From Psammoneis japonica (lineage: Eukaryota), in contig QPGO01000215.1 in assembly GCA_008632985.1 (NCBI GenBank), positions 1 to 64,000 of the forward strand: DNA of 64,000 nt, in the 5' to 3' direction. How positions within the stretch are numbered: the first letter of the stretch is position 1; each line of letters starts with the position of its first letter. Shown here in pieces: positions 6,192-42,078 of this stretch. The translations under genes and the position numbers were made by a program. The notes beneath the pieces are model-generated. The model was given only the letters and a program-made list of their open reading frames with translations. It did no database searches and was not told the origin of the DNA.

Positions 6192-6199
6192 AGCAACAA

Positions 6200-7757: not shown

Positions 7758-7839
7758 GTTTTCAAGTGAGACAAATGTGTGGTTTCAAGGAAAACAATCA
7801 TGCAAACAAACATGTGGTTTCAAGGAAAACAAACATGTC

Positions 7840-14030: not shown

Positions 14031-14205
14031 GTTGTTTTAAGAAAGACAAACGTGTCATTTCAACAAAAATGTCAATTCAAGGAAAACAAACATGTTCTTT
14101 CAAGGAAAACAAGTGTGTCTTTTAAAGGAAAACAAACACGTCGTTTCAAAGAAAACAAACATGTTGTTCCAAAGAAAACAAGCGTGTCTTTTCAAGACAA
14201 ACAAA

Positions 14206-15097: not shown

Positions 15098-16822
15098 GCT
15101 CAGTTGGACAAATGCTGTGTGATGATGCTGTGCACAACACATGCCTGAATGTGTGTGCAGAGAAGGGGCTCAACAGCTGGCTGAGTGGCAACTTCTTTGC
15201 CTCTTGGGTTGTTGAGAACCTCCTGCACTCGCCAGGACAGTGTGCAGTGTTCTGAGTGGTTGTGAGTCTTTGCGCTTCCTGAGGTCGCTGGCTTGAATCG
15301 GCCTCAAATCCAAGCCTCCTTTTCTTTCTCAGCCTGCCCCTTTCCAACCCCATCTGGGGTGGGCGGCTGGGCTTCGAGCCCGCTCCTCCCTTGGCCGGAT
15401 GCGCCACATGGCGCTGGCCCATCCTGCCCAACATGGGGAGTGCATGGTCAAATTTGTGAGTCCTCTGTGCGGATGCGCCACATGGTGACAACCCATCCTG
15501 CAACGAGAGGGAGAGTTGGACAAATGCTGTGTGACGATGCTGTGCACAACACATGCCCAAATGTGTGCGCGGAGAAGGGACTCAACAGCCAGCCGAGTGG
15601 CAACTTCTTTGCCTCTTGGGTTGTTGAGAACCTCCTGCACTCACCAGGACAGTGTGCAGCGTTCTGAGTGGTTGTGAGTCTTTGCGCTTCCTGAGGTCAC
15701 TGGCTGAATTGGCCTCAAATCCAAGCCTCCTTTTCTTTCTCGCCTGCCCCTTTCCAACCCCATCCGGGGTGGGCGGCTGGGCTTCGAACCCACTCCTCCC
15801 TTGGCCGGATGCGCCACATGGCACCAACCCATCCTGCCTGACAGAGGAGTGCATGGTCAAATTCGCAAGTCCGCTGTGCAGATGCGCCACATGGCGACAA
15901 CCCATCCTGCAATGAGAGGGAGAGTTGGACAAATGCTGTGTGATGATGCTGTGCACAACACACGCATCAGAGTGCACGAAATGTTAAAAATGTGTGGATT
16001 TGCATGATGACAATTTGTCAAAATGTTGCAAAAAATTGTTGTCGCACAATGACAGGCCAACCTCTGGTTGCAAGTTTGCTGTGCCAATGTCACAACAACT
16101 TGTTGAGAATCATGTGTGCCATTTTTCACTGTGTCCACATCGCCATTTCTGCCTCCACCTTGTTGCCATGTGCCAATCTGTGATTGCACTGCCACACAAT
16201 CCTTGGTTTGTCAATTTTTGCAAACAGGGGTGTGATCACAGAACCACTTGTGTGCCTGCTTGTTCCTTCATTTGCTGCCGGCGACAGTGTCTGGGCTGGG
16301 CGGATCCCATGTCGGCACAATCGGGATGTCTTTCTTTTCATTCTTGTCATGGCTTGACTTTTTCCTGCCTTGCTTTTTCCTCTTGACTGCCGCCTTGAGT
16401 TTCTTTTCTTTTTCCTTTCCCTCTTCCTTGGTGACAACGCCTGCACAGACAAAGCATCACCGTCATCTTCTTGTGAGATGCGCGCAACTCTCGAGTCACA
16501 CACATTGGTCACCCAACTTGCGGGCCATTGCCTCCGCCCCAACAGCCGAACACACCGTGTTTCTGAGATTGTCAACTTGCCTTTTTGCCACCTTTTTTGC
16601 CCATTCCTCCCAAGTTCCTGACCAATTTGAAGTGTCCATGTTGCCACCAGCAATCTGTTTCTTGACAAACATTGAGACGCTCCCATTGCTTGCCAATTCT
16701 GACGGGCTGAGAAACTTCACCTGTGGAAAGAGATCATTTCCAGCCACCTTCTCCTCTTCTGGTTTCAGCGCACCATGCGCTGCCTGCATGCCCGTTCTCT
16801 TCAACACTGCCTGAAGTCTCGG
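15098..16822 (-). repeat. Composite repeat A, inverted copy with two ~410-bp units
   Basis: Reverse complement of 23226-24751, extended. Confidence 0.85.
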
Positions 16823-17945
16823 GCTGCAGTGCATCCTTGCTCTGAAGAGTGTGCGCCAATGAGGAATGTCCCCATTTGCGTGGCTGCTGCCATGTGGGTT
16901 GATCCAGCCAATGGACAGCCACGCCCACTGCCAGCCCACGAGGCTGTGTTTTTCAGGGAAAGAATGACTGACACCCTGCTGTGCCCCAGCCAACTGTGAG
17001 CAAGTGAGCTGACTGTCCACGACACCCCTCGCCAGTTTGATCCCAACAGCGCGCACTCTGTTGTTTTCCTTGACTTGAAAATCAGGGTGCATTTGCGCGC
17101 GCAAGGTGTTGCTTTGGTCTTTGACTCACACGAGCTGACTCAGGAGGACATGGAGAACCTCCCCCAGCTGGAACTGACACCATCCCTTGGATGGGAACCT
17201 TCTGCTGATGCCATGGCGCAAAAGGAGGAAGAGCGTGCATGCGTCAGTGTGTGCCAAGGACCGTCAAAGTCCAGTGGACAGCTGACAATGATGAGTGCAA
17301 CCAGGTGCATTGCTTCGGCTTGTTCGTGTCAGACATCCCATCACAATGAGAGCGTCATTGTGGGTGCAAATGACGACGATTCTCTGCATTGCTGCTTGGC
17401 TGCTCAGGCCAGTGCATCTCACAATGACACTGGGGGAGACCGGCCACATGAACGGAACAATCTGGACGTCCACCTGGATTGTGCCAAGTGGAAAGGGGTG
17501 CATGCACTGTTGACCTTGAGTCGTGCATCGACTGTCACGCCGGAGATGCTCTCCAAGAGGTGGAACATTGGTCTGACGGCTGCCAAGAACACCCTCAGAG
17601 TGACGCCCAGGCAGGGGTCTGCAACTTCAAGATCATGGGTTGAGTGAGCACTGGGTGCACGCTCACGGACAGAAGTGTTCGCGAGCCGGAGGAGCGCTTG
17701 GGCACCCAGATCAGAAAGTGCCAGTTGTCTGACTTGGAAAGCAAGGCACGCTGGGCCATGTCCTCTGACCTTTGAGTCAAATGGGCATTGGCTGATGTTG
17801 AGTTGGAGCTCAAGCAAATTGACAGGTGTCCGACAAATGTGTCGACGCCCTTGAGCTTGGGAAACAGGCCTGAACTGGATGGCTTGCCTGAGTTAAATGC
17901 CAAAACGGCCAACTGTCATCAAGGCTTTCTTGGCATGCTCCAAGT
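16823..17945 (+). pseudogene. Copia family B-like pol fragment (protease, linker, then a jump to RT)
   Basis: TVTPEMLSKRWNIGLTAAKNTLRVT, and later STPLSLGNRPELD. Confidence 0.75.
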
Positions 17946-18115
17946 TGTTTGTTTTTCTTGAAAAGACATGTTTGTTTTTGTCAAAAAGACATGTTTGTTT
18001 TCCTTGAAACAACGCGTTTGTTTTCCTTCCTTGAAAAGACATGTTTGTTTTCCTTGAAAAGACACGTTTGTTTTCTTTGAAACAACATGTTTGTTTTCCT
18101 TTAAACGACATGTTT
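17946..18115 (-). repeat. 23-bp satellite array
   Basis: Tandem monomers. Confidence 0.9.
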
Positions 18116-18415
18116 GACGCATTCCAGGTCCAGGTGGGACCTCGCACTGCTGAACTGTGACATCGACAGTTTTTTGAATCACGTCGCATGTCGCGCACGT
18201 AGATTTCTACGTGATTTTTTTGACATTTTGTGTCATTTTACGGTGCACTTGTTGAGCGATCCATCCAACAACTTTTGACATTTTTTGTTACAGCGCGATT
18301 CTACAATGTCTTAAGAATCGTGCAGGGCAGGTGCATTTGCAAAAATGTTGAGTGGCAAGAGGCATGATTGTGCCACAAACTTGGCCGTTTGTTTGATGTT
18401 GAAGACAAACACATT
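18116..18415. mobile_element. Truncated MITE family 1
   Basis: One TIR (GACGCATTCCAGGTCCAGGTGGGAC). Body matches 7368-7665. Confidence 0.8.
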
Positions 18416-21400
18416 GAAAGACCCGATCTGAACCGTCCAATCTGGTGGCTGCTTGTTTTCTTCCTGACATTGTCGCAGAATGCCAGAATCGCGCAGGTGT
18501 CCGGATTGCAAAAGATTCCACATGTGCGAGCATCTCCCGTTGAAAACCTGTCTCCAACCAACGTCCAATTGAGCTCACCAAAGTTCCTTGCATCGACAGT
18601 CCACATTGTCAAAGCACGTCATTTCGTCATCAAACCAGGCTTGAAGCATGTCCAGGAGGAAGTCTCGGAGAGCAGGCACAGCGTCGATCTTGTTGCAGCA
18701 GCATCAAAGACCCTGCAGGAACTTCCTTCTCCACTGTTTGTTGTTTGGACACCAAAGCATGTGGTCCCTGTCTTCCATCGGATGCTCACATGTGATGCAT
18801 TGGTGCGGTCGAACTGGGTTGTGTTGATTTGCAATCTTGTCAGTTGGCAGCAAGTCATGGACCAGTTTGACTGTGTCAACATGCTGTTGTGAGTGACGTT
18901 TCACCAGAACCGCGTGAGCATTCCAGTCGACAAGGTCAACCACTGAAGGATCCCATTTGTTCCGTTCGACAACATGTTGCATCAATTCAGGAGCAGCAGC
19001 AGCGCACCGAATTTGTTTCTTGCAATTCGTCGTGATTGCACCCCCGTCGATCTCCAGATGCAAGTGGCAATGTGGCAGGTGCTTGACCTGATTCGTGTCG
19101 TGCAGGCAATGTCCTTGGCAAGCTCCTGCCAATTTGTCCGCTCGGATGTTAACTCTGGCATTTAACGGCAATGAGTGGACGGGAGATTGCCTGTCTTGAT
19201 GTCCTTTTGCCCATCGCACTGGAGGCAGAGCGAGATTGGCTGCATCCGACAGTTGCGTCAAAGCTTGCTGGGTGTGGAGGATCTCATTCAAAATGTCCCA
19301 ATCCAGAGCGACAGCGTTGGCCCCATGGCAGCGAATGTGAAAGTCATGTTGTTCGCATGCGTCGTTCTTGAGATCACTCACCGGCAGGATGGGAGTCAAT
19401 TCAGACAAACAGTCAACCAGTGCTTTGTCATCGCAATGAATCACTGCATCCAAAGGAACGGCAACGCGGCAGCATTCGCACAGCCGGCAGATGAATCTTG
19501 CAATGGATGGAATGCCGCAAGCTTCTGCGTGGTGAGAGGACGGAGTCTTCCCAAAAACTGGCCCTGCACAATCCACTGGTGGTGCACCATCCATGGCAAT
19601 GGTCCACCCAAAGGTGGCTCCTTCTTGGACCGATCCATCACTGCCTGCGGTGAGATGAGACGAAAGAAAGTGTCGAGCCACTGTTCGTGGAGAAACATGA
19701 AAGACCAAGTCTTCAAATGGCACAGATTCCCACTTGTCGAGTCCCTGAAGATGCGACAGAAAGGAATCTGGAGTGGTCGGAGAGTGGAAAGCGGTTGATG
19801 AAGTGCACGGGATCTCGAAATGGCAGACACCTCAACTGGACAAGAAGAATCGGAAGGATGTGGTGCAGTCTCCATCTCTCTGACAGAATCAGCGATGGTC
19901 CTGTTTGCTTGAAATGTGTCACAACCGGTTGGAGAGCGCACATGCAAGTGTTCCTTGGATGGAGAAAAGCACGCAGTTGACTGCACTCTCATCTGGGATG
20001 GTGGCAGAAGCCAATCTCCTGGGGGTTCCTTCAAGCGCAGTGACTTCGGATGGCACAGGGCTGAACAAAATTTCTTCCAGACTTTCCATGCTTGCTGGCA
20101 TGGCTTGCACTGCTCGATGTTGTTGAGTGCACCAACACTGCTCTGCAATGACGGTTCCCCTTGTGCTTTTGACCCATCCAGCGTCATTCCATCCGACAGA
20201 GCAACATCTGAAACAGACAAGACTTTCAGGTGCAGACGGCAACAGAAAAGATTTCCACTTCGATGTCATCGTGGTGAGGGCAGATGCATGGTTCGCCACA
20301 TTCAGTGAAGTCCCACTCGATGGTGTGGAAAGAACATTTTGGCAGTTCTGGTTTGTGCCCGGCCGCATCCAGTGGATCACACCACAACTGGTTGTCCGAT
20401 TGTAGAGATTGAGACAACTCGAAAGCAGAAGGCTGAGGGCTGGCTCTAAAGTCGTTCACTTGCTTGGAAGTGTCGTCGACATGTCCTCGGTTGAAAACTC
20501 AAATGCAAAACTGTCCGTCCGGGGTTTCGAAATGTGATCCGACAGCTTCTGCGTCAAAAACATCAAAGAGTCTGCTGCACAGAGTGTTCCAGTGCCAGGG
20601 AGAATTTCCACTGCCTTGTCCTGTTCCACACAAAGGACACTCAGAGGAATGAGAACAACATCGTTGGGCGAGTCCCAGAAGAGTGCGCAACCAGTGGCGC
20701 GCGTGATGCAAAGTCGCCATGTTGACTTTGACTGCTCTTTTGTGCATGCCATTGCTCTTCGCACACAATCTGACAATTGCTGGAATGTTCCTGTTGTGGC
20801 AAGAAGTGCAATCGTCGTCGCTGGTTGGCGAAGTCTTCCTGGATGCGCGTGAAATCTCCATCATTGGATTTTCAAGAAACACTGGTGTTTGAGCGGAGAG
20901 GAATGATCTGCATCCGTAGATCCCTGGGTTGCACACGCGACAGTGCTCCACATGTTGAGCCAACTCTTGCCACTTGACGCTTGCAATCAATTGGAAATCT
21001 GCCTCGTAAACATGAATCACTTGCAATCTGTGAATCTTGTTGTTGCCTGGTTCTTTGAAAATCATCACATTCACAATGTCTTTCCACCGTTCGTATGAGC
21101 AGCCCCACTTCAGAGTGCAATTGATCAAGTTGAGCCGCATTGCCACAAGAGTCTGTTGAGCCGAATCCAGCAGTTCTTTCTGCTTGGATGGATTCCCGTC
21201 GTCGTCGTAATCAGATGCATGAGAATGAGGAGCATGCACAGCTTTCCAATGCCCCAAATGAATCCCCGATTTCAATGATGCAGAGGTGGATTCAGACCAC
21301 AATGCAATCTTTGACCGCAGGGCTTCAGGAGAAAGGGCGCCAGGAACTGCTGGGGGTGTGTTGTCGTCGGAGATGCTGGATCAGCAATGATGCAGCCCGG

Positions 21401-22060
21401 CTCAGTTGTTCCGTTTTGCACTCACTGTCTGAGATCAGGTCAGCCATGATGGCATCTCCTTCACATCCGAGATCCACTGACAAGACAGGAACCGTGGGAG
21501 GAGTTCCATGTGCCTGCCCGAAATGGCGTTGATTGCGGTGCTGAAGTGCAGATTCGACGTCGTCTGGAGCGTCTGTCGTCGTCCAATTCTCACATGTCTT
21601 TGGATCATCTCGAGGATCTGCTGGAATTTGAACAGTTTGCACGCTGGAGTCTTCTGACTTTTTGCACGCGTTGATTTTCCAAAAGACTCATTTGGTTTCT
21701 TCGGCGCAGCGTTGGTTTCGTAGCATTCGGGCTTTCGCCTTCGACTGTTTCGTGCATTCTGGCTCGAGTTCTGCGATCCGTGCATCTCTTTCTTCTTCAC
21801 GGTGTTTCTGACTCTCTCGCGCAACTTCAGCGGCAATCTCAATGAACTCTGACGCAAGAAAAGAACATGAGCCAGTGCGCATGCAGAGGTTTGGGTGTTG
21901 AGCAACAAATGACAACGGAAGAGACAGCAACGCAACTTGCTTTGATGCTGAAAACAAGCTCACCTGCATCTCTTCCGCGCCCCCCTTCTGCAATTCAAAG
22001 CACATTCACAGCTGCAATGTCTCAAACAGCGGCGACAACAGCAATGGCATGAACGTGGTC
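18416..22060 (-). mobile_element. Degraded non-LTR retrotransposon (LINE) with RT, RNase H and a C-terminal Cys/His motif
   Basis: RT: SGIHLGHWK, MIFKEPGNNKIHRLQVIHVYEAD, GTGQGSGNSP. RNase H: SDGSV, AEACG, HCD, WAKGHQD, NIRADKLA. C-terminal CITC...EDRDHMLWC. Frameshifted; boundaries approximate. Confidence 0.85.
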
Positions 22061-22231
22061 AAATTGCAGCAGCAGAAGCAGCAGCATCGACAGCAAGCAC
22101 ATGAATGGAGCCAAAAATGAGTTGGACAATGGAAGGCATCACCCACCATGGCGGTTCTGCCACAGCGGTGAATGCAACAACATCAATGTGGCTCTGTTGG
22201 TGTTGCAGCGCCGATGTGATGGTGGGCATGG

Positions 22232-22712
22232 CACGCTTGTTTTCCTTGAAAAGACACGCTTGTTTTCCTTGAAACAACATGTTTGTTTTCCTTGAAACGA
22301 CATGTTTGTTTTCCCTGAAACAGCGCGTTTGTTTTTCTTGAAAACACATGTTTGTTTTCCTTGAAAAGACATGTTTGTTTTCCTTGAAACCACATGTTTG
22401 TTTTCCCTGAAACGACACATTTGTTTTCCTTGAAAAGACACGCTTGTTTTCCTTGAAACGACGTGTTTGTTCTCCTTGAAACCACGTGTTTGTTTTCCTT
22501 GAAACCACATGTTTGTTTTCCTTGAAAACACACGTTTGTTTTCCTTGAAAAGACATGTTTGTTTTCCTTGAAACGACATGTTTGTTGAGATGACTTTGAA
22601 GCAACATGTTTGTTTTCTTTGAAACGACGCGTTTGTTTTCCTTCAAAAGACACACTTGTTTTCCCATGACATTTTTGTTTTGAAATGACGTGTTTGTTTT
22701 TCTTGAAACAAC
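22232..22712 (-). repeat. 23-bp satellite array
   Basis: Tandem monomers. Confidence 0.93.
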
Positions 22713-23001
22713 ATGAGTGTGCCTTGAATTCTGTGCAAGAGCGCACTGACGGAAGCAAACCAACACGATTCCATGTGCAGGAGAACAGCATCTGTGCCCC
22801 ACAAGAAGCTTGCACCTGTCCCCAAGTGCAGTTGGATCCATGAGACTGCAATGTGCAGCAATTTGTGGGGTTGACCATCTCCCAGATGAAGATGTGTGAT
22901 GCCTCTGGAATGCTTGAGCAGCGCCCACAATTGAGCAACTCCTTGTTTGATGTCTGGCGGTCAAAATGAGTTGTTTTGTGCTTCAGCTGCACCCACATTT
23001 G

Positions 23002-23225
23002 AACATGTTTGTTTTTCTTGAAAAGACATGTTTGTTTTCTCTGAAAAGACATGTTTGTTTTCCTTGAAACAACGCGTTTGTTTTCCTTGAAACGATGTGC
23101 TTGTTTTCCTTGAAAAGACATGTTTGTTTTCTTTGAAACGACATGTTTGTTTTTCTTTAAACGACATGTTTGTTTTCCTTGAAACCACGTGTTTGTTTTC
23201 CTTGAAACGACACGTTTGTTTTCCT
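23002..23225 (-). repeat. 23-bp satellite array
   Basis: Tandem monomers. Confidence 0.93.
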
Positions 23226-24751
23226 CAAATTGGTCAGGAACTTGGGAGGAATGGGCAAAAAAGGCGGCAAAAAGGCAAGTTGACAATCTCAGAAACACGG
23301 TGTGTTCGGCTGCTGGGGCGGAGGCAATGGCCCGTAAGTTGGGTGACCAATGTGTGTGACTCGAGAGTTGCGCGCATCTCACAAGAAGATGACGGTGATG
23401 CTTTGTCTGTGCAGGCGTTGTCGCCAAGGAAGAGGGAAAGGAAAAAGAAAAGAAACTCAAGGCTGCAGTCAAGAGGAAAAAGCAAGGCAGGAAAAAGTCA
23501 AGCCATGACAAGAATGAAAAGAAAGACATCCCGATTGTGCCGACATGGGATCCGCGTGGCCCAGACACTGTCGCTGGCAGCAAACAAAGGAACAAGCAGG
23601 CACGCAAGTGGTTCTGTGATCACACCCCTGTTTGCAAAAATTGACAAACCAAGGATTGTGTGGCAGTGCAATCATGGATTGGCACATGGCAACAAGGTGG
23701 AGGCAGAAATGGTGATGTGGGCACAGTGAAAAATGGCACACATGATTCTCAACAAGTTGTCGCGACATTGGCACAGCAAACTTGCAACCAGAGGTTGGAG
23801 TGTCATTGTGCTACAACAATTTTTTGCAACATTTTGACAAATTGTCATCATGCAAATCCACACATTTTTGGCATTTCGCGCACTCTGATGCGTGTGTTGT
23901 GCACAGCATCATCACACAGCATTTGTCCAACTCTCCCTCTCATCACAGGATGGGTTGTCGCCATGTGGCACATCTGCACAGCGGACTTGCAAATTAGACC
24001 ATGCACTCCCTCTGTCAGGCAGGATGGGTTGGTGCCATGTGGCGCATCCGGCCAAGGGAGGAGTGGGTTCGAAGCCCAGCCGCCCACCCCGGATGGGGTT
24101 GGAAAGGGGCAGGCCGAGAAAGAAAAGGAGGCTTGGATTTGAGGCCAATTCGAGCCAGCAACCTCAGGAAGTGCAAAGACTCACAACCAGTCAGAACGCT
24201 GCACACTGTCCTGGCGAGTGCAGGAGGTTCTCAACAACCCAAGAGGCAAAGAAGTTGCCACTCGGCTGGCTGTTGAGTCCCTTCTCTGCGCACACATTTG
24301 GGCATGTGTTGTGCGCAGCATCGTCACACAGCATTTGTCCAACTCTCCATCTCGTCGCAGGATGGGTTGTCACCATGTGGCGCATCCGCACGGAGGACTC
24401 ATGAATTTGACCATGCACTCCCCATGTTGGGCAGGATGGGCCAGCGCCATGTGGCGCATCCGGCCAAGGGAGGAGCGGGCTCGAAGCCCAGCCGCCCACC
24501 CCAGATGGGGTTGGAAAGGGGCGGGCTGAGAAAAAAAGGAGGCTTGGATTTGAGGCCGATTCAAGCCAGCCACCTCATGAAGCACAAAGACTCGCAACCA
24601 CTCAGAACACTGCACACTGTCCTGGCGAGTGCAGGAGGTTCTCAACAACCCAAGAGGCAAAGAAGTTGCCACTCAGCCAGCTGTTGAGCCCCTTCTCCGC
24701 ACACACATTCAGGCATGTGTTGTGCACAGCATCGTCACACAGGTCCAACTG
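23226..24751 (+). repeat. Composite repeat A, 5'-truncated, with two ~412-bp units
   Basis: Unit starts recur at ~23892, ~24304 and ~24716. Confidence 0.85.
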
Positions 24752-26208
24752 AACATGTCCTTTCAAGGAAACCAAACATGTTTTCCTTGAAAAGACATGT
24801 TTGTTTTGATTGAAAAGACATGCTTGTTTTCCTTGAAACCACGTGTTTGTTTTCTTTTAAATGACACGTTTGTTTTCCTTGAAAAGACATGTTTGTTTTC
24901 TTTGAAACAACATGTTTGTTTTTCTTGAAAAGACATGTTTGTTTTCCTTGAAACGACATGTTTGTTTTCCTTGAAAAGACATGTTTGTTTTCCTTGAAAC
25001 GACACGTTTGTTTTCCTTGAAACGACACGTTTGTTTTCCTTGAAAGGACACGTTTGTTTTTCTTGAAAAGACACGCTCGTTTTCATTGAAAAGACATGCT
25101 TGTTTTCTGTGAAACAACATGTTTGTTTTCCTTGAAATCACATGTTTGTTTTTCTTGAAAACACATGTTTGTTTTCCTTGAAACGACATGTTTGTTTTCC
25201 TTGAAATGACATGTTTGCTTTCCTTAAAAATGCACCTTTGTTTTCCTTGAAAACACATGTTTGTTTTCCTTGAAACCACGTGTTTGTTTTCCTTGAAAAG
25301 ACATGTTTGTTTTCCTTGAAATGACACGTTTGTTTTCCATGAAACAACATGTTTGTTTTCCTTGAAACAACACGTTTGTTTTCCAAAACATGTTTGTTTT
25401 CTTTGAAACAACGCGTTTGTTTTCCATGAAACGACATGTTTGTTTTCCTTGAAACCACGTGTTTGTTTTCCTTGAAAACACATGTTTGTTTTCCTTGAAA
25501 CGACATGTTTGTTTTCCTTGAAATGATGTGTTTGTTTTCATTGAAAAGACCTGTTTGTTTTCCTTGAAAAGACACATTTGTTTTCTTTGAAACGAAACAT
25601 TTGTTTTCCTTGAAACGGCATGTTTGTTTTCTTTGAAAAGAAATGTTTGTTTTCAAGACATGTTTGTTTTCCTTGAAACCACATGTTTGTTTTCCTTGAA
25701 ATGACACGTTTGTTTTCCTTGAAAAGACACGCTTGTTTTCCTTAAAAAGACATGTTTGTTTTCCTTAAAAAGACATGCTTGTTTTCCATGAAACGACATG
25801 TTTGTTTTGCTTGAAACCAAATGTTTGTTTTTCTTGAAAACACATGTTTGTTTTCCTTCATACGACATGTTTGTTTTCCTTGAAACGACATGTTTGTTTT
25901 CCTTGAAAAGACTCCTTTGTTTTCTCTGAAAAGACATGCTTGTTTTCTGTGAAACAACATGTTTGTTTTCCTTGAAACCACATGTTTGTTTTCCTTGAAA
26001 CCACGTGTTTGTTTTCCTTGAAACCACGTGTTTGTTTTCCTTGAAAATGCATGTTTGCTTTCCTTGAAACGACACATTTGTTTTCCTTGAAACGACACTT
26101 TTGTTTTCCTGGAAACGACATGTTTGTTTTCCTTGAAAAGACACACTTGTTTTCCTTGAAATGACACATTTGTTTTCTCTGAAAAGACATGTTTGTTTTC
26201 CTTGAAAC
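24752..26208 (-). repeat. 23-bp satellite array
   Basis: Tandem monomers. The array continues in register after 32872. Confidence 0.97.
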
Positions 26209-26446
26209 CGAAAGAAATCCGATGTGTTGGATTTAGTTAGAGTGCTGTTGTTAGAGTGCTGTTGGCAACGGCTGGTGCTGAGCCAACCGTTGTGACGTGT
26301 TGTCGGAGGGAAGCGTTGGATTTCCCTCCAATGGCGCTCACTTGTTACGAGCAGTTGCAACAGGCCTGAGAGCATCTTTGGATCGTTGGATTGTTGTCAT
26401 GCCAGCACTGTGAGCAGCTGAGCCATTCGGCAGCTGGATTTGCTCG
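26209..26446 (+). repeat. 5' LTR
   Basis: Direct repeat of 32635-32872. Confidence 0.93.
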
Positions 26447-26461
26447 CTTCATCAGAGCCAG
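26447..26461 (+). promoter_or_regulatory. Primer-binding site (initiator tRNA-Met-like)
   Basis: CTTCATCAGAGCCAG immediately after the LTR. Resembles the canonical TGGTATCAGAGCC. Confidence 0.7.
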
Positions 26462-26751
26462 TGTCCGCACTCCGCGGTTTGGTGATGGAAAACGATGAAC
26501 AACGTGATTGTGACGGTCATGTCATGATGGCACGGTTTTGATGACGAATGCTGACCAACCTGAGGGTGTTCACCGTTGAGTGATGCCTTCGCATCAGTGT
26601 GCGCGCAAAGCAGTGGGAGACAAGGCCACATCACCGCACTCTCAAGGCCTGCGCGCATCGTCAACGCGATTTTGTGAACGTCAAAGTTTTGATGCACTTC
26701 TTCTGACACAACTGCTTTGTCTTGTGATGCTGTGATGAATCAGGTTTCACC

Positions 26752-28173
26752 ATGGCGGCAGCCCCACCGAACCCGATGGAAACGGCCCTTGCTTGGATCG
26801 GTTTCCAGCTGCCTGCTCAGCGCAACGCGATCATGACTGACATCGCCACGTTTGACGATGTCGTCGACATTGAGGAATCGGACATCGATGCGCTCGCGCA
26901 GTCTCATTCGAGGAGGACTGCTGCTGAGGGGCGTTTCCACTTTGGATTGGCTCGCACCCGTCGTCTCAAGTCCCTCATTCATTGGGTGCATGACTTCCAA
27001 CGCATCAGTGAAAATCCCACCATCGACGGTTTGGATCAGGCGCATTTTCTCGATGCGCCATCTGCTGCGTTGTCGAGGGCCGACATTCGCAGCCAGATGA
27101 GGGATCAATCTGAGTCCATTGCTCGTGAGGCATCCCCTGGACTCTTGGAGAGCGAAAAGGTCTGGGCAAAATGGAGCACCGCTTTCAAGAACATGCTCAG
27201 CACGATGCTGGGAGTCGACGGCGTTCCGTTGATTTGTGTCATGTGCGAGAACGAGGAGCCCGAGCCTGAAGGGCATGAGATTTTCATGCAGAAGTCGGTT
27301 GCATGCGCTCCACTCGAGGGTCCAGCTTTCAAAGCTGATTCTCATGCCGTCAGCCAACCAATCGTTTTGTTCACGAAAGGCACCCCAAGCAAGCAGTGGA
27401 TCAAAGAGCACCGCAACAGCCAGAGCGGTCGTCTCTGCTGCGAATCTTTGGAGAACCACTGTCAGGGCAAGGGCAACACTGCCCGTCGTGTCTCAGAAGC
27501 TGAGCGTTTGGAAAACACTCTGCATTGCAGGAGTGAATGCTCCATGACATTCGAAACGTTCGTGAACAAGCTTCAGGAGATGTTCAACATTTTCGAAGAG
27601 AATGATGAACCCAAGACGGAGGCTCAGAAGCTGCGATTGCTGTTTGACAAGGTGCAACACCAGCAGTTGCAGAACGCAGCAGAGACCCTGAAGGCGCAGA
27701 ATGAGTTCGGAGGAGGGATCAGTTTTGCTGCAGCATGCAACCATCTTGCCGCTAAAGTCGCCACTCTCCCGGAAACAGTTGCGCACCGTCGTGCAATTTC
27801 CTCTGTTGCATCCGGTGTTGGCAAGGAAGGTGATTCCATTTGCAAAGAAGATGGGTCCATTGACACCGGATTTCATAAAAATTGGCATCAATTGAGCAAG
27901 GAAGACAAGAAGAAGGTCATGGACGAGCGTGTGCGTTTGGGACTCAAGAAGAAGCCGGGTGACCTGAAGCGCCGCGCTGCATCCGTCAGATTGCTTGAAA
28001 AGAAGAATCGGAAGCTGACGCCCCAGCTTGAGCAAGCAAACTGCACTGTTTCTTCCTTGGAGACCACTGCCGGCACCGATCCCGGAAAGGTTGGTGCAGG
28101 AACTGGCAGTCAAGGCGGCAACAATGCCGGAGATGCATTTGGGGGATGCCAGGAGCGTCAGCAACGCAGCTGA
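26752..28173 (+). CDS. gag: Copia Gag-like protein (open frame, hypermutated, no Tyr)
   Basis: 473-aa ORF after the PBS: GVDGVPLI, LENHCQGKG, LENTLHC, NAGDAFGG near the C-terminus. Confidence 0.8.
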   Translation: MAAAPPNPMETALAWIGFQLPAQRNAIMTDIATFDDVVDIEESDIDALAQSHSRRTAAEGRFHFGLARTRRLKSLIHWVHDFQRISENPTIDGLDQAHFLDAPSAALSRADIRSQMRDQSESIAREASPGLLESEKVWAKWSTAFKNMLSTMLGVDGVPLICVMCENEEPEPEGHEIFMQKSVACAPLEGPAFKADSHAVSQPIVLFTKGTPSKQWIKEHRNSQSGRLCCESLENHCQGKGNTARRVSEAERLENTLHCRSECSMTFETFVNKLQEMFNIFEENDEPKTEAQKLRLLFDKVQHQQLQNAAETLKAQNEFGGGISFAAACNHLAAKVATLPETVAHRRAISSVASGVGKEGDSICKEDGSIDTGFHKNWHQLSKEDKKKVMDERVRLGLKKKPGDLKRRAASVRLLEKKNRKLTPQLEQANCTVSSLETTAGTDPGKVGAGTGSQGGNNAGDAFGGCQERQQRS

Positions 28174-28215
28174 CTCCTGAGCTGGACCCTGTCATGTGGC
28201 CTCATCCAGTTTGCA

Positions 28216-31200
28216 TTGTGGCTGCTTCATTGGGGTGGGGGCCAGCCGCATCGTTCGAAAGAAATGTTGGTTCATGGGGACTGTCGTTGCATTTGTGAAA
28301 TTGCCACTTCCACACGACGAGTCTCTGCGGCACGGACTGACACGCGTGCCACTCACGTCCGAACAGACGATCAGGTAAAGCATGGGCGACTGGAGTTGGA
28401 CTCACATGCTGACACTGCTGTTTTTGGTTCTAACTTTACCCTCTTGGGTTGCACTGGCAGAGAATGCGACGCATCACCTTACAACGAGGGATGCGAAGCC
28501 ATCAAGAGTGTCCCAATCGCATCGGCGGCCACTGCGTGGACCTCACCGGCGACGGGAGCAACGCACATCCTGGCATTCCATGAAGGGCTTTGGATGGCAG
28601 ATTCCATGGAGAATTCTCTCCTTGACCCGAATCAGATGAGGCATTTCAGTGTCACGGTTCAGGATGACCCCTGTTCCGAGTCGCCGTTGCATGTCCTTAC
28701 GGAGGACAAGGGATTTATGCTGCCCCTTGAGTTGATGGGAACTGGCATCGTTGCGGCAACTCGGACCCCCACTGAAAGGGAGCTCCAAGAGTGCCCACAC
28801 ATCCAGTTGACCTCCCAACAACCTTGGGATCCACACAACGTCAAGTTTGAGCAATCCAGACCTCGACGTTCTGTGGAGGAGGAAATGGAGTTGACTCGGT
28901 TGGTCGCAACTGTTCGGTCAAGCCCCAGCTGCGCGTTTGGTCAGGATCCTGATCACAGCAACCCTCAGACCGGGGACTGTTGTGACAGGAGACTTGTCTG
29001 CGGTGTGGACCAAGTTCAATCAAGATTGACAGCGTCAGTCCAGGTGGAAGCGGATGTTCAGATCGCGGCCACTGAGACGATCGGCTCGGAACTCGAAGAC
29101 GCACCGTCCCCGAAGACTTTCATGTCCAAGGAACGGCACAGCTCTGTCACCGCTGTTGACTTGAGCGAGTGCTGGGGCATTGGATTGAAACAAGCGACAT
29201 CAACATTGAAGAAGCCCACCCAGAAGCCAGTGAGATCGGCGCTCATGCCCCTGGCCAGGCGTTGTCGAGCGGATCGGATGTTCACGAAGCCGAAACTTCG
29301 AGGCGAGTGGGCGACTGATGCGGTCGACGGCAAAGTGGNNNNNNNNNNNNNNNNNNNNNNNNNNNNNNNNNNNNNNNNNNNNNNNNNNNNNNNNNNNNNN
29401 NNNNNNNNNNNNNNNNNNNNNNNNNNNNNNNNNNNNNNNNNNNNNNNNNNNNNNNNNNNNNNNNNNNNNNNNNNNNNNNNNNNNNNNNNNNNNNNNNNNN
29501 NNNNNNNNNNNNNNNNNNNNNNNNNNNNNNNNNNNNNNNNNNNNNNNNNNNNNNNNNNNNNNNNNNNNNNNNNNNNNNNNNNNNNNNNNNNNNNNNNNNN
29601 NNNNNNNNNNNNNNNNNNNNNNNNNNNNNNNNNNNNNNNNNNNNNNNNNNNNNNNNNNNNNNNNNNNNNNNNNNNNNNNNNNNNNNNNNNNNNNNNNNNN
29701 NNNNNNNNNNNNNNNNNNNNNNNNNNNNNNNNNNNNNNNNNNNNNNNNNNNNNNNNNNNNNNNNNNNNNNNNNNNNNNNNNNNNNNNNNNNNNNNNNNNN
29801 NNNNNNNNNNNNNNNNNNNNNNNNNNNNNNNNNNNNNNNNNNNNNNNNNNNNNNNNGGCAGGTGGCTCGGAGTGTCCCACCGGATTGGCAGTCTAATGTC
29901 ACATCACGTGTTGACGCAAACCGGTCGTGTCACATCGCGAACATCTGTTCAGCGAGTCACCAACTTGGAAGCTGGCACTCAAGAGAATCAAGATCGGTTC
30001 AAGGCTTTTGACGAGGAGATCCAGCGCAGACTTCGTGACCAAGAGTTTCCCGAAGACGAAGAGCGCAGGATCAGCCCCGAAGACTGGAAGGACCATCTTG
30101 GGTGCGACGACGAATTCCTCGACGAGTGCGATCGCGTCATCAGTTCTGAAGATGTGTTGAACAAGGACGACGACAAGAAAGACGAGGAAGCCTCCCCGGA
30201 AGCGGCGGATTGGGGTCATCTCAACATGGAATTGGCTTTGCCGAGAGATGATGATGGTCCCGAGTTCGCGCGTGTAACGAAGAGGTTGAGGGATGCGAGT
30301 GGCATTCCCATTGGGACAGCCAACGACAACCCAATCCTAGACACTCGAATGTGTCAGGTGGAGTGTCCCGATGGTCACACTGCAGCACTTTCAGCTGACT
30401 CTGTTGCCATGAACATGTTTGCACAGATTGACGAGGACGGAAATCGGCATGTTCTGTTCGATGAGATTACAGACTTCCGTGCGAATGGGGACGTCCCGGA
30501 ATCCGATTTCTTTGAAACTGAGCAAGGCAACAAGAGGCAGCGCAGGACCACGAAAGGATGGGAACTCTTGTTCCAATGGAAGGATGGCAGTGCCACTTGG
30601 GTTGACCCAAAGGACGCGAAGGAAGGACTCCCTGTCCAGGTCGCCGAGCTCGCCATCCAACGCAAGATCTCGAAGGAGCCGGCGTTTGCTTGGTGGGTTC
30701 CGCACGCAATGAGGACCCGCAAGCGTTCCATTGTGAAGGTCAAGTCGAAGCATTGGTTGAGAACCCACAAATTTGGCACGCGAATTCCCAAGACTGTGAA
30801 GGAGGCACTGGAGCTCGATCGTGCGAACAGCAACACCTTGTGGCATGACGCCATTTGCTTGGAAATGAAGAATGTTCGAGTTGCGTTCGACAAGTTCGAG
30901 GGGGACGAAACGGAGCTGCCTCCTGGGTGCCAACAAATCGATTGTCACATGATTTTTGACATCAAGTTGGGAGAGAACTTTCGGCGCAAGAGTGGGATGG
31001 TTGCGGGTGGTCACATGACTGATGCCCCAACTGCCATTGCCTGCTCCTCAGTTGTTTCCAGGGATTCGGTGAGGATTGCCCTTGCACTTGCCGCGCTTGA
31101 TGACTCACAAGTCTTTGCCTGCGACATCCAGAATGCCTGCTTGACAGCGCCGTGCCGAGAGAAAATTTGGACTCGTGCCGGTGAAGAGTTTGGCGCAGAA

Positions 31201-32466
31201 CGCGGTGAGATCATGATTGCAGTCAGGGCACTCTACGGATTGAAGAGCTCCGGCGCGGCATTCAGGGCCTTCCTTGCGGAGACGCTTTGTGATCTAGGAT
31301 GCAAGCCCAACAAGGCTGATCCCAATGTTTGGATGAGGCCAGCAGTGAAGCCAGACGGATTCGAGTGCTACGAGTGCATCTTGGTGTACGTCGACGACTT
31401 GCTGTCGATTGGCCATGAGCCAATGAAGACCATGGATGGCATCAAGTCGAAGTTCAAGCTCAAAGACGACAAAGCAGCGGAGCCTGAATCCCACTTGGGC
31501 GCCAAGTTGTCGAAGATGGACCTTGCTGATGGTGCTGCCTGCTGGACGATGTCAGCAGAAGATTGCTGCAAGGCGGCGGTCCGGAATGTTGAGGACAAAT
31601 TGGCCAAGGAAGGAAAACGGCCACCGAGCAAAGCATGCACACCTTCAAGCAGCGGACACAAGCCAGAGTTGGACACTTCGGGCGAACTGGATGCAGAAGG
31701 CCTCAACTGCTGCCAAGAGCTGATTGGCGTTTTGATTTGGGCCGTGGAGTTGGGCAGGGTCGATGTCATTTTGGAAGTGTCAAGTGTGTCGGCTCACCTT
31801 GCCTTGCCGCGCATTGGTCACTTGGAACAGGCATTGCACATCTTTGCATGCCTTGAACAGGTCCCAAAGCACCGGGTGGTGTTCGATCCTGCGCATCCGG
31901 TCATCGACGAGTCTAGGTTCAAGGAGTGCGATTGGCTCGACTTCTGCCGAGACGCGCAAGAGGCGATTCCCCCCAACATGCCACCACCTCGAGGTGACGT
32001 TGTGTCTGCTCATTGTTTCGTGGATGCCAACCATGCTGGTGATGCATCAACTCGCCGCAGTCATGCAGGTGTTCTGACATTCCTGTGCCGAGCACCCATC
32101 ATCTGGTGTTCGAAGAGACAGAACACCGTGGAGACTGGTGCTTTTGGCGCCGAGATCGTGGCACTCAAGGTTGCGGTGGAACTTGTTGAAGGTCTGAGGC
32201 ACAAGCTTCGAATGTTTGGAGTTCCTGTTGAAGGTTCTACGAACGTGTTCTGTGACAATGAAGCAGTGTGCAAGAATTGCTCCATCCCGGAGTCTGCTCT
32301 CAAGAAGAAGCATCATTCCATTGCATGCCATCGCAACAGGGAAGCTGTTGCTGCGGGGACTGTTCGCCCAGCAAAGGAGGATGCGGAAACCAACCTTGCG
32401 GATTTGTTCACAAAGGTTGTGACTTCGATTTGTCACAATTTCCTGTTGGACAAGTTCGCTCATTGA
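28216..32466 (+). CDS. pol: Copia Pol polyprotein (protease, integrase mostly in the N gap, RT, RNase H); probably non-functional
   Basis: LDSHADT, MVAGGH, DIQNACL, ALYGLKSSG, YVDD, FVDANHAG, FCDN, NLADLFTK. Spans the gap at 29339-29856, so frame continuity is unverified. Confidence 0.9.
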   Translation: MWLLHWGGGQPHRSKEMLVHGDCRCICEIATSTRRVSAARTDTRATHVRTDDQVKHGRLELDSHADTAVFGSNFTLLGCTGRECDASPYNEGCEAIKSVPIASAATAWTSPATGATHILAFHEGLWMADSMENSLLDPNQMRHFSVTVQDDPCSESPLHVLTEDKGFMLPLELMGTGIVAATRTPTERELQECPHIQLTSQQPWDPHNVKFEQSRPRRSVEEEMELTRLVATVRSSPSCAFGQDPDHSNPQTGDCCDRRLVCGVDQVQSRLTASVQVEADVQIAATETIGSELEDAPSPKTFMSKERHSSVTAVDLSECWGIGLKQATSTLKKPTQKPVRSALMPLARRCRADRMFTKPKLRGEWATDAVDGKVXXXXXXXXXXXXXXXXXXXXXXXXXXXXXXXXXXXXXXXXXXXXXXXXXXXXXXXXXXXXXXXXXXXXXXXXXXXXXXXXXXXXXXXXXXXXXXXXXXXXXXXXXXXXXXXXXXXXXXXXXXXXXXXXXXXXXXXXXXXXXXXXXXXXXXXXXXXXXXXXXXXXXXXXXXXXXGRWLGVSHRIGSLMSHHVLTQTGRVTSRTSVQRVTNLEAGTQENQDRFKAFDEEIQRRLRDQEFPEDEERRISPEDWKDHLGCDDEFLDECDRVISSEDVLNKDDDKKDEEASPEAADWGHLNMELALPRDDDGPEFARVTKRLRDASGIPIGTANDNPILDTRMCQVECPDGHTAALSADSVAMNMFAQIDEDGNRHVLFDEITDFRANGDVPESDFFETEQGNKRQRRTTKGWELLFQWKDGSATWVDPKDAKEGLPVQVAELAIQRKISKEPAFAWWVPHAMRTRKRSIVKVKSKHWLRTHKFGTRIPKTVKEALELDRANSNTLWHDAICLEMKNVRVAFDKFEGDETELPPGCQQIDCHMIFDIKLGENFRRKSGMVAGGHMTDAPTAIACSSVVSRDSVRIALALAALDDSQVFACDIQNACLTAPCREKIWTRAGEEFGAERGEIMIAVRALYGLKSSGAAFRAFLAETLCDLGCKPNKADPNVWMRPAVKPDGFECYECILVYVDDLLSIGHEPMKTMDGIKSKFKLKDDKAAEPESHLGAKLSKMDLADGAACWTMSAEDCCKAAVRNVEDKLAKEGKRPPSKACTPSSSGHKPELDTSGELDAEGLNCCQELIGVLIWAVELGRVDVILEVSSVSAHLALPRIGHLEQALHIFACLEQVPKHRVVFDPAHPVIDESRFKECDWLDFCRDAQEAIPPNMPPPRGDVVSAHCFVDANHAGDASTRRSHAGVLTFLCRAPIIWCSKRQNTVETGAFGAEIVALKVAVELVEGLRHKLRMFGVPVEGSTNVFCDNEAVCKNCSIPESALKKKHHSIACHRNREAVAAGTVRPAKEDAETNLADLFTKVVTSICHNFLLDKFAH

Positions 32467-32622
32467 ATTGGCGGCAAATGGGGTTTGGATTTTGGGAATC
32501 GGGTCGGTGGTGATTTTCTTCCCCAGTGAGGGTTTGCACCATGGCCAGCACGGAGTGTTGACATGGTTGATTGCATTGGTTGAATTGTGCCTGTCAAGCA
32601 CGCCCTTGGCTTGTTAGAAACA

Positions 32623-32634
32623 TTTCAAGGGGAC
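32623..32634 (+). promoter_or_regulatory. Polypurine tract
   Basis: TTTCAAGGGGAC directly before the 3' LTR. Confidence 0.7.
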
Positions 32635-32872
32635 CGAAAGAAATCCGATGTGTTGGATTTAGTTAGAGTGCTGTTGTTAGAGTGCTGTTGGTGACGGCTG
32701 GTGCTGAGCCAGCCGTTGTGACGTGCCATCGGAGGGAAGCGTTGGATTTCCCTCCAATGGCGCTCACTTGTTACCAGCAGTTGCAACAGGCCCAAGAGTG
32801 TCTTTGGATTGTCAGATTGTTGTCACACCAGTGCTGTGAGCAGCTGAGCCATTCGGCAGCTGGATTTGCTCA
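32635..32872 (+). repeat. 3' LTR
   Basis: Direct repeat of 26209-26446, ending in CA. Confidence 0.93.
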
Positions 32873-34834
32873 AAACGACATGTTTGTTTTCCTTGAAAAG
32901 ACATGTTTGTTTTCCTTGAAAAGACATGTTTGTTTTCCTTGAAATGACAGGTTTGTTTTCCTTGAAACCACATGTTTGTTTTTCTTGAAATGACACCTTG
33001 GTTTTCTCTGAAAAGATGTGTTTGTTTTCCTTGAAACGACACGTTTGTTTTTCTTGAAATGACACGTTTGTTTTCTTGAAAAGATGTGTTTGTTTTCTTT
33101 GAAACAACATGTTTGTCTTTGAAAGACATGTTTGTTTTCCCTGAAACGACACGTTTGTTTTCCTTGAAAAGACACGTTTGTTTTCCTTGAAAAGACATGT
33201 CAGTTTTCTTTGAAATGACACGTTTGTTTTTCTTGAAACAACATGTTTGTTTTCGTTGAAAAGACATGTTTGTTTTCTCTGAAACCACATGTTTGTTTTC
33301 CCTGAAACAACACATTTGTTTTCTTTGAAAAGACATGTTTGTTTTCCTTGAAAAAACATGTTTGTTTTCCTTGAAAAGACATGTTTGTTTGCCTTGAAAC
33401 AACACGTTTGTTTTCCTTGAAAAGACACGTTTGTTTTCCTTGAAAAGACATGTTTGTTTTTTTGAAAAGACATGCTTGTTTTCCATGAAACGACATGTTT
33501 GCTTTCCTTGAAACCACATGTTTGTTTTCTTTGAAAAAACATGTTTGTTTTCCTTGAAACAACATGTTTGTTTTCCTTGAAACGACATGTTTGTTTTCCT
33601 TGAAACGATGCGCTTGTTTTCCTTGAAAAGACATGATTCGTTTCCTTGAAAAAACATGTTTGTTTTCTTTGAAATGTCACATTTGTTTTCCTTGAAAAGA
33701 CATGTTTGTTTTCTTTGAAACGACATGTTTGTTTTTTTTTTGAAAAGACATGTTTGTTTTCTTTGAAATGACATGTTTGTTGAGGTGACTTTGAAACAAC
33801 ATGTCTGTTTTCTTTGAAACAAGGTGTTTGTTTTCTTTGAAAAGACATGCTTGTTTTCCTTGAAATGACGTGTTTTTTCCCCCTGAAATGACATGTTTGT
33901 TTTCCTTGAAACCACATGTTTGTTTTCTTTAAAATGACACGTTTGTTTTCCTTGAAAAGACATGTTTGTTTTCTTTGAAACAACACGTTTGTTTTTCTTG
34001 AAAAGACATGTTTGTTTTCCTTGAAAAGACATGTTTGTTTTCCTTGAAACCACATGTTTGTTTTCCCTGAAACGACACTTTTGTTTTCCTTGAAACGACA
34101 TGTTTGTTTTCCTTGAAAAGACATGTTTGTTTTCCTTGAAAAGACATGCTTGTTTTCCATGAAACGACATGTTTGCTTTCTTTGAAACCATTTGTTTGTT
34201 TTCCTTGAAAACACATGTTTGTTTTCCTTGAAACGACACGTTTGTTTTCCTTGAAACGACATGTTTGTTTTCCTTGAAAAGACATGTTTGTTTTCCTTGA
34301 AAAGGCATTTTTTCCCTTGAAGCAACATGTTTGTTTTCCTTGAAACGACATGTTTGTTTTCCTTGAAAAGACATGTTTGTTTTCAAGACATGTTTGTTTT
34401 CCTTGAAACGACACGTTTGTTTTCCTTGAAACGACATGTTTGTTTTCCTTGAAATGACGTGTTTGTTTTCCTTGACAAGACATGTTTGTTTTCTTTGAAA
34501 AGACATGTTTGTTTTCTTTGAAACCACATGTTTGTTTTCCTTGAAACCACATGTTTGTTTTCCTTGAAACAACGTGTTTGTTTTCCTTGAAAAGACATGT
34601 TTGTTTTTCTTGAAATGACACGTTTGTTTTCCACAGGTTTGTTTTCCTTGAAACCACATGTTTGTTTTTCTTGAAATGACACCTTGGTTTTCTCTGAAAA
34701 GATGTGTTTGTTTTCCTTGAAATGACATGTTTGTTTTTCTTGAAATGAAATGTTTGTTTTCCTTGAAAAGATGTGTTTGTTTTCTTTGAAACAACATGTT
34801 TGTCTTTGAACGACATGTTTGTTTTTCCTGAAAC
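32873..34834 (-). repeat. 23-bp satellite array
   Basis: Tandem monomers. Confidence 0.97.
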
Positions 34835-34898
34835 GAGAGCCAATCGCCAACAGCACACAAGCTGCCTGTGTTTGTGACAGCACACCAGCATTTGTTCA
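34835..34898 (-). repeat. Copia family B LTR stub
   Basis: Reverse complement of 42079-42142. Confidence 0.8.
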
Positions 34899-34964
34899 GA
34901 ACAACATGTTTGTTTTCCTTGAAACAACATGTTTGTTTTCCTTGAAAAGACACGTTTGTTTTCA

Positions 34965-35354
34965 GACGCGCTCCAGCCCTGGGTGGGACTCCGTGTGACA
35001 TTGGGCCCACAGAATTCTACGTGCGAGCTCCGCAGCACAAGAATTTAATTGGTGGATGCATTTGTCTTCAACATCAAACAATCGGCCAAGTTTGTGGTGC
35101 AACTGTGCCTCTTGCCACTCGACGTTTTTGCAAATGCGTCTGCCCCACGCGATTCTTGAGACATTGTAGAATTGCGCTGCAACAAAAAATGTCAAAAGTT
35201 TTTGGATGGATCGCTCAATGAGTGTGCCGTAAAATGACACAAAACATCAAAAAAATGGCATGGAAATCTACGTGCACAACATGCGACGAGATTCAAAAAA
35301 CTGTCGATGTCACAGTTCAGCAGTGCGAGGTCCCACCTAGACCTGGAACGCGTC
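34965..35354. mobile_element. MITE family 1, TSD TTCA
   Basis: TTCA|GACGCGCTCCAGCCCTGGGTGGGAC ... GTCCCACCTAGACCTGGAACGCGTC|TTCA. Confidence 0.88.
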
Positions 35355-42012: not shown

Positions 42013-42078
42013 TGAAAACAAACATGTCTTTTCAAGGAAAACAAACATGTCGTTTCAAGGAAAACAAACATGTCGTTT

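Follow-up and report, generated by a model that had tools for sequence, protein, structure and literature searches.

Repeat-induced point mutation (RIP), which acts in Neurospora and other ascomycetes, introduces dense C to T changes at CpA into repeats, makes TpA, and kills transposons. The cytosine deaminases APOBEC3 and AID change C to T in mobile and viral DNA, and a context signature of 2–4 bases identifies the enzyme; a counterpart for adenine in nuclear DNA is not known to be established. For TA-erasing hypermutation of mobile DNA there is one account, a 2026 preprint about an alga unrelated to diatoms. According to its main text, integrated giant-virus and virophage DNA of Bigelowiella natans undergoes TpA-restricted hypermutation, observed there in mutation-accumulation lines, for which an ADAT2-like deaminase of the TadA/ADAT family was proposed as the agent (Mettrop et al., bioRxiv 10.64898/2026.01.13.699255). 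The stretch described here, 64,000 bp from the diatom Psammoneis japonica (contig QPGO01000215.1, positions 1 to 64,000; the whole of it is called the window), is repeat DNA from which TA has been erased almost completely. The TA dinucleotides that survive in it are probably the slow substrates of a process that reads the bases around TA and converts it to TG or CA in integrated repeats. There is good support for the flank preference, which also predicts survival, and an adjacent CpG confers a protection that is real but partial.

1..64000, no strand assigned: TA-erased repeat DNA, the whole window, as judged from dinucleotide counts (212 TA, observed/expected 0.049).

The depletion of TA is present in each 2-kb bin of the window. 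CA and TG stand at observed/expected ratios of 1.59 and 1.60, CG is at 0.67, and the dinucleotides other than TA, CA, and TG lie between 0.67 and 1.47, a pattern of change restricted to TpA. The part of the window outside a 23-bp satellite holds 164 TA per 45,094 bases (observed/expected 0.063). As in the main text on B. natans, the changes are almost only A to G or T to C, all fall on TpA and give TpG and CpA, and they would be local to foreign or repeat-like DNA, in stretches poor in TA and rich in CA + TG. Unlike there, the host is not a chlorarachniophyte, and TA rho is 0.05 in place of the 0.45 given for the region derived from nucleocytoplasmic large DNA viruses. In that main text, supplements aside, the words context, trinucleotide, flanking, CpG, and diatom are absent and no flank rule is given; in full-text searches of the literature aimed at this process, neither TA erasure in diatoms nor its flank rule was found described, the B. 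natans preprint being the nearest account. RIP shares with the present case dense transitions in repeated or mobile DNA and a dinucleotide preference, but direction and chemistry are opposite, TpA being destroyed here and CpA/TpG being made. RIP is ruled out by the 20-fold depletion of TpA together with the excess of CpA/TpG. A weaker activity on A outside TA may also exist (compare the ACATGT and ACACGT variants of the satellite, below).

The direction of change and the time of action were read from two dead retroelements, a copia element with its pair of long terminal repeats (LTRs) and a long interspersed nuclear element (LINE) with a reverse transcriptase (RT) open reading frame (ORF).

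26207..26445, + strand: 5′ LTR of the copia element, 239 bp, with 4 TA (26234, 26238, 26252, and 26346), all common to the 3′ LTR.

28174..32466, + strand: copia gag-pol frame (RVT_2), interrupted by a run of N at 29339–29856.

32633..32871, + strand: 3′ LTR of the copia element, 239 bp, compared with the 5′ LTR.

18300..21500, − strand: dead LINE (non-LTR retrotransposon), whose long homologues carry APE endonuclease (Exo_endo_phos) or RVT_1.

20502..21380, − strand: RT-fragment ORF of the LINE, 293 aa, with 4 Tyr codons left, all TAC followed by G.

For copia, 60 intact homologues (57%–65% identity) were aligned and the positions with Tyr in at least half of them were taken. These 34 positions now read Cys in 19 cases, His in 8, Tyr in 4, Leu in 2, and Glu in 1; the 17 homologue-Tyr positions of the LINE read Cys (6), His (5), Phe (3), Tyr (2), and Trp (1). 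Taking the codons that now encode Tyr, Cys, or His, 31 in copia (19 Cys, 8 His, 4 Tyr) and 13 in the LINE (6 Cys as TGY, 5 His as CAY, 2 Tyr), 38 of 44 inferred Tyr codons have become Cys (TGY, 25) or His (CAY, 13). The changes are thus almost only A to G or T to C, as are 17 of the 18 differences between the LTRs, and T lies directly 5′ of the changed A, only TA having been erased. The outcome TG was more frequent than CA at these codons (25 versus 13, p = 0.07); over whole elements no clear strand bias was seen, the TG/CA ratio being 1.14 in copia, compared with 1.03 in its relatives, and 0.94 in the LINE.

The two LTRs of one element are identical at insertion. In the copia element they differ at 18 bases, and 14 of these make up 7 dinucleotides where CA in one LTR faces TG in its partner. 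This discordance indicates that erasure acts on integrated DNA and independently on both copies. Four TA are shared by the two LTRs, and no TA is confined to one of them (p = 0.001 over the 11 known sites). Nine of the ten CpGs of the pair are intact in both and one is CG/TG; since 7 TA were lost while 1 of 10 CpGs changed, TA erasure is much faster than CpG change.

The flanks of the surviving TA were then set against two references. The survivor set consisted of 143 non-satellite TA, with homologous copies counted once, both strands pooled, and the two bases 3′ of TA recorded. As a proxy for the ancestral state, 17,671 TA sites were taken from 77 related copia loci found in metagenomes, intact or partial. 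In these loci the observed/expected ratio of TA is 0.47–1.05 (0 of the 77 fall below 0.47), that of CA and TG about 1.0–1.5, and that of CG mostly 0.8–1.1. The CA/TG sites of the window itself formed the second reference. The survivor/proxy ratios of the sixteen classes, written as TA followed by its +1 and +2 bases, were as follows.

TA-AA: 3.8

TA-GA: 3.5

TA-CG: 1.7

TA-AC: 1.7

TA-AG: 1.4

TA-CA: 1.3

TA-GC: 1.1

TA-AT: 0.84

TA-GG: 0.66

TA-TG: 0.51

TA-GT: 0.49

TA-CC: 0.23

TA-CT: 0.15

TA-TA: 0.14

TA-TT: 0.12

TA-TC: 0.04

At +1, A is found in 44% of survivor flanks versus 23% and T in 6% versus 31% (p = 9e-28, survivors against references); at +2, A accounts for 51% versus 23% (p = 3.5e-29). 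The difference at +3 is weak (p = 0.01), and from +4 outward survivors and references show no consistent difference. In Poisson models of the 256 NN-TA-NN classes, the main effects were those of +1 (chi2 142, 3 df) and +2 (chi2 105, 3 df). Among tetramers, TTAA is enriched 3.4-fold relative to the proxy, GTAC stands at 0.10, and ATAT at 0. When the proxy is scaled to the window, rough absolute survival amounts to ∼32% for TA-AA (77 of ∼244), ∼15% for TA-CG (34 of ∼232), 6% for TA-CA, 1%–1.5% for TA-CC and TA-CT, and 0.3% for TA-TC. The flank result was unchanged with the window's CA/TG sites as reference and with stricter de-duplication. Because the footprint is short and ends at +3, enzyme-like recognition fits, and the flank preference that a sequence-only reading of this DNA had proposed for the mutator is borne out: survivors differ from proxy TA at +1 and +2, and weakly at +3.

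That reading had also placed the survivors next to CpG and in TTA or CTA contexts. Indeed, all sites that it quoted are TACG or CGTA (113, 8152, 10230, 23335, 25861, 26346, 32238, 35230, and 63823), and 207 of the 212 TA in the window form TTA/TAA or CTA/TAG with one neighbor or both; the five exceptions are ATAC/GTAT (4) and GTAC (1), with ATAT at 0. TACG or CGTA makes up 39 of the 212 TA (18 TACG, 21 CGTA), compared with 15.8 ± 3.6 in dinucleotide-preserving shuffles, 0 of 100 of which reached 39. These raw counts include 48 TA in the satellite, which are new mutations and not survivors, and several TACG that are homologous copies of a single repeat, for example tcTACGtg at 7452, 18200, and 41707. 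The enrichment persists after the satellite is removed and copies are collapsed, at 143 sites and at 122 under a stricter rule, and it remains when the ancestral hexamer frequencies of the proxy are taken into account.

32873..37573, + strand: largest array of the 23-bp satellite, with a consensus that contains no TA.

The satellite bears on whether the remaining TA report survival at all, or are mostly new mutations, young insertions, or local escapes whose contexts would say nothing about it. It forms 19 arrays, ∼17.4 kb in all, between 629 and 52348 of the window (e.g., 8591–10551, 32873–37573, and 46602–48189), and since its consensus has no TA, all 48 of its TA must be new. In some columns of multi-copy repeats, a lone TA likewise faces TT, GA, or uniform CA/TG in the other copies, and one element (49573–50375, described below) is visibly less mutated than its surroundings. 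A new TA arising from CA or TG should, however, inherit the flat +1 composition of the CA/TG sites (A/C/G/T 26/27/24/24%), not the 44/21/29/6% of the survivors. The 6 surviving Tyr codons sit where 70%–100% of homologues have Tyr, the LTR survivors are common to both LTRs amid 7 independent losses, and an excess of CG is missing at offsets 1–11 from the survivors, which speaks against a regional cause. An origin of most remaining TA by new mutation or escape is therefore very improbable.

Of the new TA in the satellite, 23 of 48 arose at CCTTGAAA, which became CCTTAAAA, a slow site, and 9 of 48 lie at GTTTATTT in one shared variant; 0 of 48 occupy either of the TA that single transitions in ACATGT would make. 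This suggests that the process was still active after the satellite had expanded, with the qualification that the counts are non-independent through array amplification.

On the favored explanation, namely a TA to TG or CA conversion (A:T to G:C) in integrated repeat DNA that leaves slow sites behind, the process would read about two, perhaps three, bases on each side of TA. Sites of the form RR-TA-YY, with pyrimidines 3′ of TA on both strands, are erased almost completely, and YY-TA-RR lasts longest, above all with AA or GA after TA on both strands. A TA survives only if both of its flanks are slow. TAC is fast except where a purine follows the C, and TACG has about 4-fold additional protection, which is peculiar to CpG, limited to direct adjacency, and partial. 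The rule may be one read on the duplex, with RR-TA-YY fast and YY-TA-RR slow. The data show the direction of change, its action after integration, the flank rule and how well it predicts survival, and the CpG term; the agent would be an enzyme, the simplest candidate being an adenine deaminase of DNA whose footprint is short.

The rule was applied out of sample to the Tyr codons. Weights for the two flanks were taken from 111 survivors outside the satellite, the LINE, and copia, and were multiplied for each site. The 6 surviving Tyr codons ranked above the 38 mutated ones with an area under the curve of 0.97 (p = 1.4e-4). In the copia frame the survivors are 28480 (TAC-A) and three of the form TAC-G (LY-G at 31234, CY-E at 31369, and VY-V at 31387); in the LINE ORF, all four Tyr codons left (DY-D, SY-E, VY-E, and IY-G) are TAC followed by G, the TA standing at 20917, 21007, 21094, and 21208 and being read as CGTA on the + strand. 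These contexts are as they had been described from the sequence. The G that follows the copia TAC codons is ancestral, the homologues having Gly, Glu, Val, or Asp next. Over both elements, 5 of 8 Tyr codons of the TACG type were kept; of the 36 in any other context 1 was (Fisher p = 2.9e-4), and of the 11 TACA likewise 1 (p = 0.041 relative to TACG).

28492..28494, + strand: example of a lost TACG in copia, Tyr in 60 of 60 homologues and followed there by Glu/Asp, now TGC-gaa.

The second lost copia codon of this kind lies at 31927 and is now TGC-gat; the one lost from the LINE is at 19519 on the minus strand and now reads TGC-ggc. Both lost copia codons have very fast opposite flanks (TC and CT), and of the TACG Tyr codons with a slow opposite flank 5 of 6 survive. 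TACG is therefore best taken as one moderately slow flank that needs a slow partner.

The Tyr at 31387 belongs to the catalytic YVDD motif of the copia polymerase, and purifying selection on that motif, or else a counting artifact from the repeated tcTACGtg with its ACGT-core box, could have inflated TACG among the survivors. About 11 of the 39 TACG do come from one repeat family. The enrichment nevertheless persists at 143 or 122 independent sites and in the training set from which the LINE and copia were removed, where the weight of CG is 1.52. Selection on single codons is unlikely, both elements being dead and 38 of 44 conserved Tyr having been replaced. An explanation from counting or selection is thus scarcely credible. 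The score of 31387 (gtg TAC gtc) is of the survivor type, so the retention of the YVDD tyrosine can be understood without selection, as the sequence-only reading had supposed.

Whether an adjacent CpG acts on its own account was examined by adding a CpG term to the model. The term was significant (chi2 20.6, p = 6e-6), with survival 4.2-fold above the additive expectation from +1 and +2. It remained 3.8-fold (p = 3.5e-5) when a general pyrimidine-purine term for +1/+2 was added and 4.1-fold (p = 5e-5) after collapse to 122 clusters, and it holds with the window's own product sites as reference. CG directly follows the survivors in 27 of 286 flanks at offset 0, compared with 1.7%–5.9% at offsets 1–11 and 4.1% beside CA/TG sites. 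As the excess of CG is confined to direct adjacency, a regional cause, such as young stretches that escaped mutation, does not account for it. Part of the CpG effect is due to the purine at +2, because TATG (0.51) lies above TATC (0.04) and TATT (0.12). The earlier claim that an adjacent CpG blocks the mutator is therefore not supported in that form: a protection of about 4-fold is found, but it is partial and not a block, 3 of 8 TACG Tyr codons having been lost, and CpG is not the leading context, TA-AA (3.8-fold) and TA-GA (3.5-fold) being enriched about twice as much as TA-CG (1.7-fold). In the window as a whole, TGCG numbers 456 and CACG 287, compared with 2289 and 2218 in relatives; the apparent 91% TG share is inflated and suggestive only, because GCG is kept better than ACG (1.17 versus 0.67). 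The similarity of TACA and TACG in bulk is hard to read, because some TACA/TATG survivors may descend from TACG or TATA.

The same claim had a second half, that the CpG may be methylated and that 5-methylcytosine (5mC) would then be what blocks the mutator, in which case the survival of TACG would report methylation and not a sequence preference. The specificity of the CpG term beyond the pyrimidine-purine term, its confinement to direct adjacency, and the advantage of TACG over TACA at ancestral Tyr codons are all as 5mC would have it. The two-way fate of TACG would also fit a mix of methylated and unmethylated sites: it was either kept or, in 3 of 3 lost Tyr codons, became TGC-G, i.e., the A beside the CpG changed. 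In Phaeodactylum, PMC9998398 describes CG methylation of diatom transposons via DNMT5a, whose loss removes DNA methylation and de-represses young transposons. By analogy, methylated CpGs in such elements of P. japonica are plausible.

In contrast, the copia element that holds three TACG survivors shows no CpG decay. Its CG observed/expected ratio is 0.89–1.08 although nearly all of its TA are gone, and since its CpGs are undecayed, its sequence gives no sign of CpG methylation. The flank rule alone already explains 7 of the 8 TACG Tyr codons, counting the two fast-flanked losses in copia and the five of six slow-flanked ones that were kept. The 3′ LTR keeps a TA as TACC (32772) where its 5′ counterpart is TACG, and the difference of TATG from TATC and TATT is, as noted above, partly one of the purine at +2. 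A block by 5mC is thus unlikely, and the CpG effect would be a plain sequence preference independent of 5mC.

Four related copia loci (L042, L058, L035, and L068) have CpG observed/expected ratios of 0.01–0.38 with high CA/TG and TA at 0.47–0.82, and are cases of ordinary CpG decay without TA erasure. The non-satellite part of the window has retained or gained GCG trinucleotides (1.17, with intact relatives as the reference), while ACG (0.67) and TCG (0.69) are depleted, so that CpG loss depends on the preceding base.

If the agent is an adenine deaminase, its footprint can be compared with those of the TadA/ADAT family. TadA and ADAT2-ADAT3 convert A to I, and sections of PMC10027721 describe U at −1 in bacterial and fungal mRNA editing, a preference of bacterial TadA for UACG that covers all 15 Escherichia coli mRNA sites, and an enrichment of A/G at +1 in fungal editing; a ‘YAC’ preference of adenine base editors is described in part of PMC13109818. 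Analogous to these enzymes, where T or U is required 5′ of the target A, the process in the window acts on TA alone. The near-constant loss of TACC (0.23) and TACT (0.15) is what a YAC preference would give. In contrast to the UACG preference of the bacterial enzyme, TACG is relatively spared here (1.7), and unlike in fungal editing, A or G at +1 protects, pyrimidines at +1/+2 marking the best targets. Substrates of TadA are RNA hairpin loops, whereas the target here is integrated DNA. Given the flank rule, a simple TadA-like enzyme is disfavored, unless, on the boldest interpretation, it is 5mC that makes TACG immune. In the latter case, a TadA/ADAT-like DNA adenine deaminase would find unmethylated TACG a good substrate, as TadA does UACG, and 5mC at +1 would render the site immune; such an arrangement is distinctly unlikely. 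If it were true, each TACG would be either kept or turned into TGCG, and the survivors would mark which CpGs carried methylation during the activity of the mutator. Two layers of silencing would then interact, and the TA/TG/CA pattern of dead transposons would be a fossil record of DNA methylation.

The preferred explanation by slow sites and a short-footprint enzyme would not depend on methylation. Its footprint consists of T at −1 and favored pyrimidines at +1 and +2, with a survival range of about 100-fold between TA-AA and TA-TC and a partial exception at CpG. Quantified footprints of this kind were what identified the APOBEC enzymes, which resemble the present case in reading a short flank motif but act on cytosine. 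The footprint found here could be used to pick or reject candidate deaminases, and as it stands it would count against an enzyme with the simple UACG preference of TadA and against the motif of fungal ADAT editing. It could also serve in detectors of TA erasure in other genomes and, where a dead transposon has retained a motif such as YVDD, help to tell mutational survival from selection.

Several observations weigh against this explanation or limit its resolution. The frequencies used for the ancestral state come from relatives at 39%–75% protein identity, which stand in for the true ancestors. The flanks are themselves altered by the process, since TATA feeds TACA/TATG, and CpG decay turns TACG into TACA/TATG. 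In multi-copy columns, 4 TA face states other than pyrimidine-purine in the other copies, so that some of the TA counted as survivors may be new. A strand-by-strand model, in which each A is ruled by its own 3′ flank, gained no support, fitting 16 of 28 informative Tyr sites (p = 0.57), and these sites do not discriminate between a strand-wise and a duplex reading of the hexamer. In the LTR pair, one GTTAGA was lost in both copies and two others were kept in both, which the hexamer context is insufficient to explain; the lost and kept sites differ at +3, in line with the weak signal there. The survival of a site is thus more site-specific than the hexamer rule predicts.

Self-alignment of the window gave 63 discordant CA/TG columns and 27 TA columns and is a secondary check only, most TA loss predating the duplications. 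The 3′ neighbors in the discordant columns are A 32, C 34, G 27, and T 33, with CG next in 5 of 126; such columns may also stem from ancestral CG. The core hexamer of the satellite, among 610 anchored units, reads ACATGT in 359, ACACGT in 58, ACACAT in 42, and ACGTGT in 19, variants that fit CpG decay and CpG creation alike, as do the multi-copy columns.

49573..50375, no strand assigned: less mutated element of ∼800 bp with 18-base terminal inverted repeats, containing ∼20 TA, 6 of them TACG/CGTA.

The density of TA in this element is much above that of the rest and includes the fast contexts aaTAat and ttTAtt. Its terminal repeats differ by TA versus CA, with CGTAAACA in one and CGCAAACA in the other, and its appearance is that of a more recent insertion, mutated only in part. 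A dispersed repeat family with a conserved tcTACGtg (ACGT core) is found at 7452, 7703, 8131, 14509, 18200, 18208, 35018, 35269, 41707, 41958, and 59980; it keeps this TA although its copies are only 62%–91% identical to one another.

No recognizable host gene was found in the window, where a scan of 110 ORFs against Pfam gave no family above cut-off. A separate Pfam scan of 16 ORFs placed the copia RVT_2 above cut-off, together with several low-complexity LbR_Ice_bind matches and one CcmE on satellite-derived ORFs. The scan of 110 added no sets of Tyr codons to those of copia and the LINE. One nearest cluster in a protein atlas is labeled Bacillariophyta, the phylum being known for 2 members, which is a slight taxonomic hint. 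A search of a plasmid collection with the region gave 0 matches.

The copia element (26207–32871) lies inside a satellite array, with satellite units directly adjoining both of its ends. Of two public sequencing runs, one (X2) has 0 contigs that match copia at ≥80% likeness. In the other, a DNA run (X1), 1033 contigs match it (26209–32872) at ≥80% likeness and 257 at ≥99%. Among the positions listed, copies in this run have CA opposite a TG of the window, or TG opposite a CA, at least at 27359–60, 27819–20, 29902–3, and 29933–4. The number of these contigs and their CA/TG discordances indicate that the copia family is abundant and that its copies were mutated independently.

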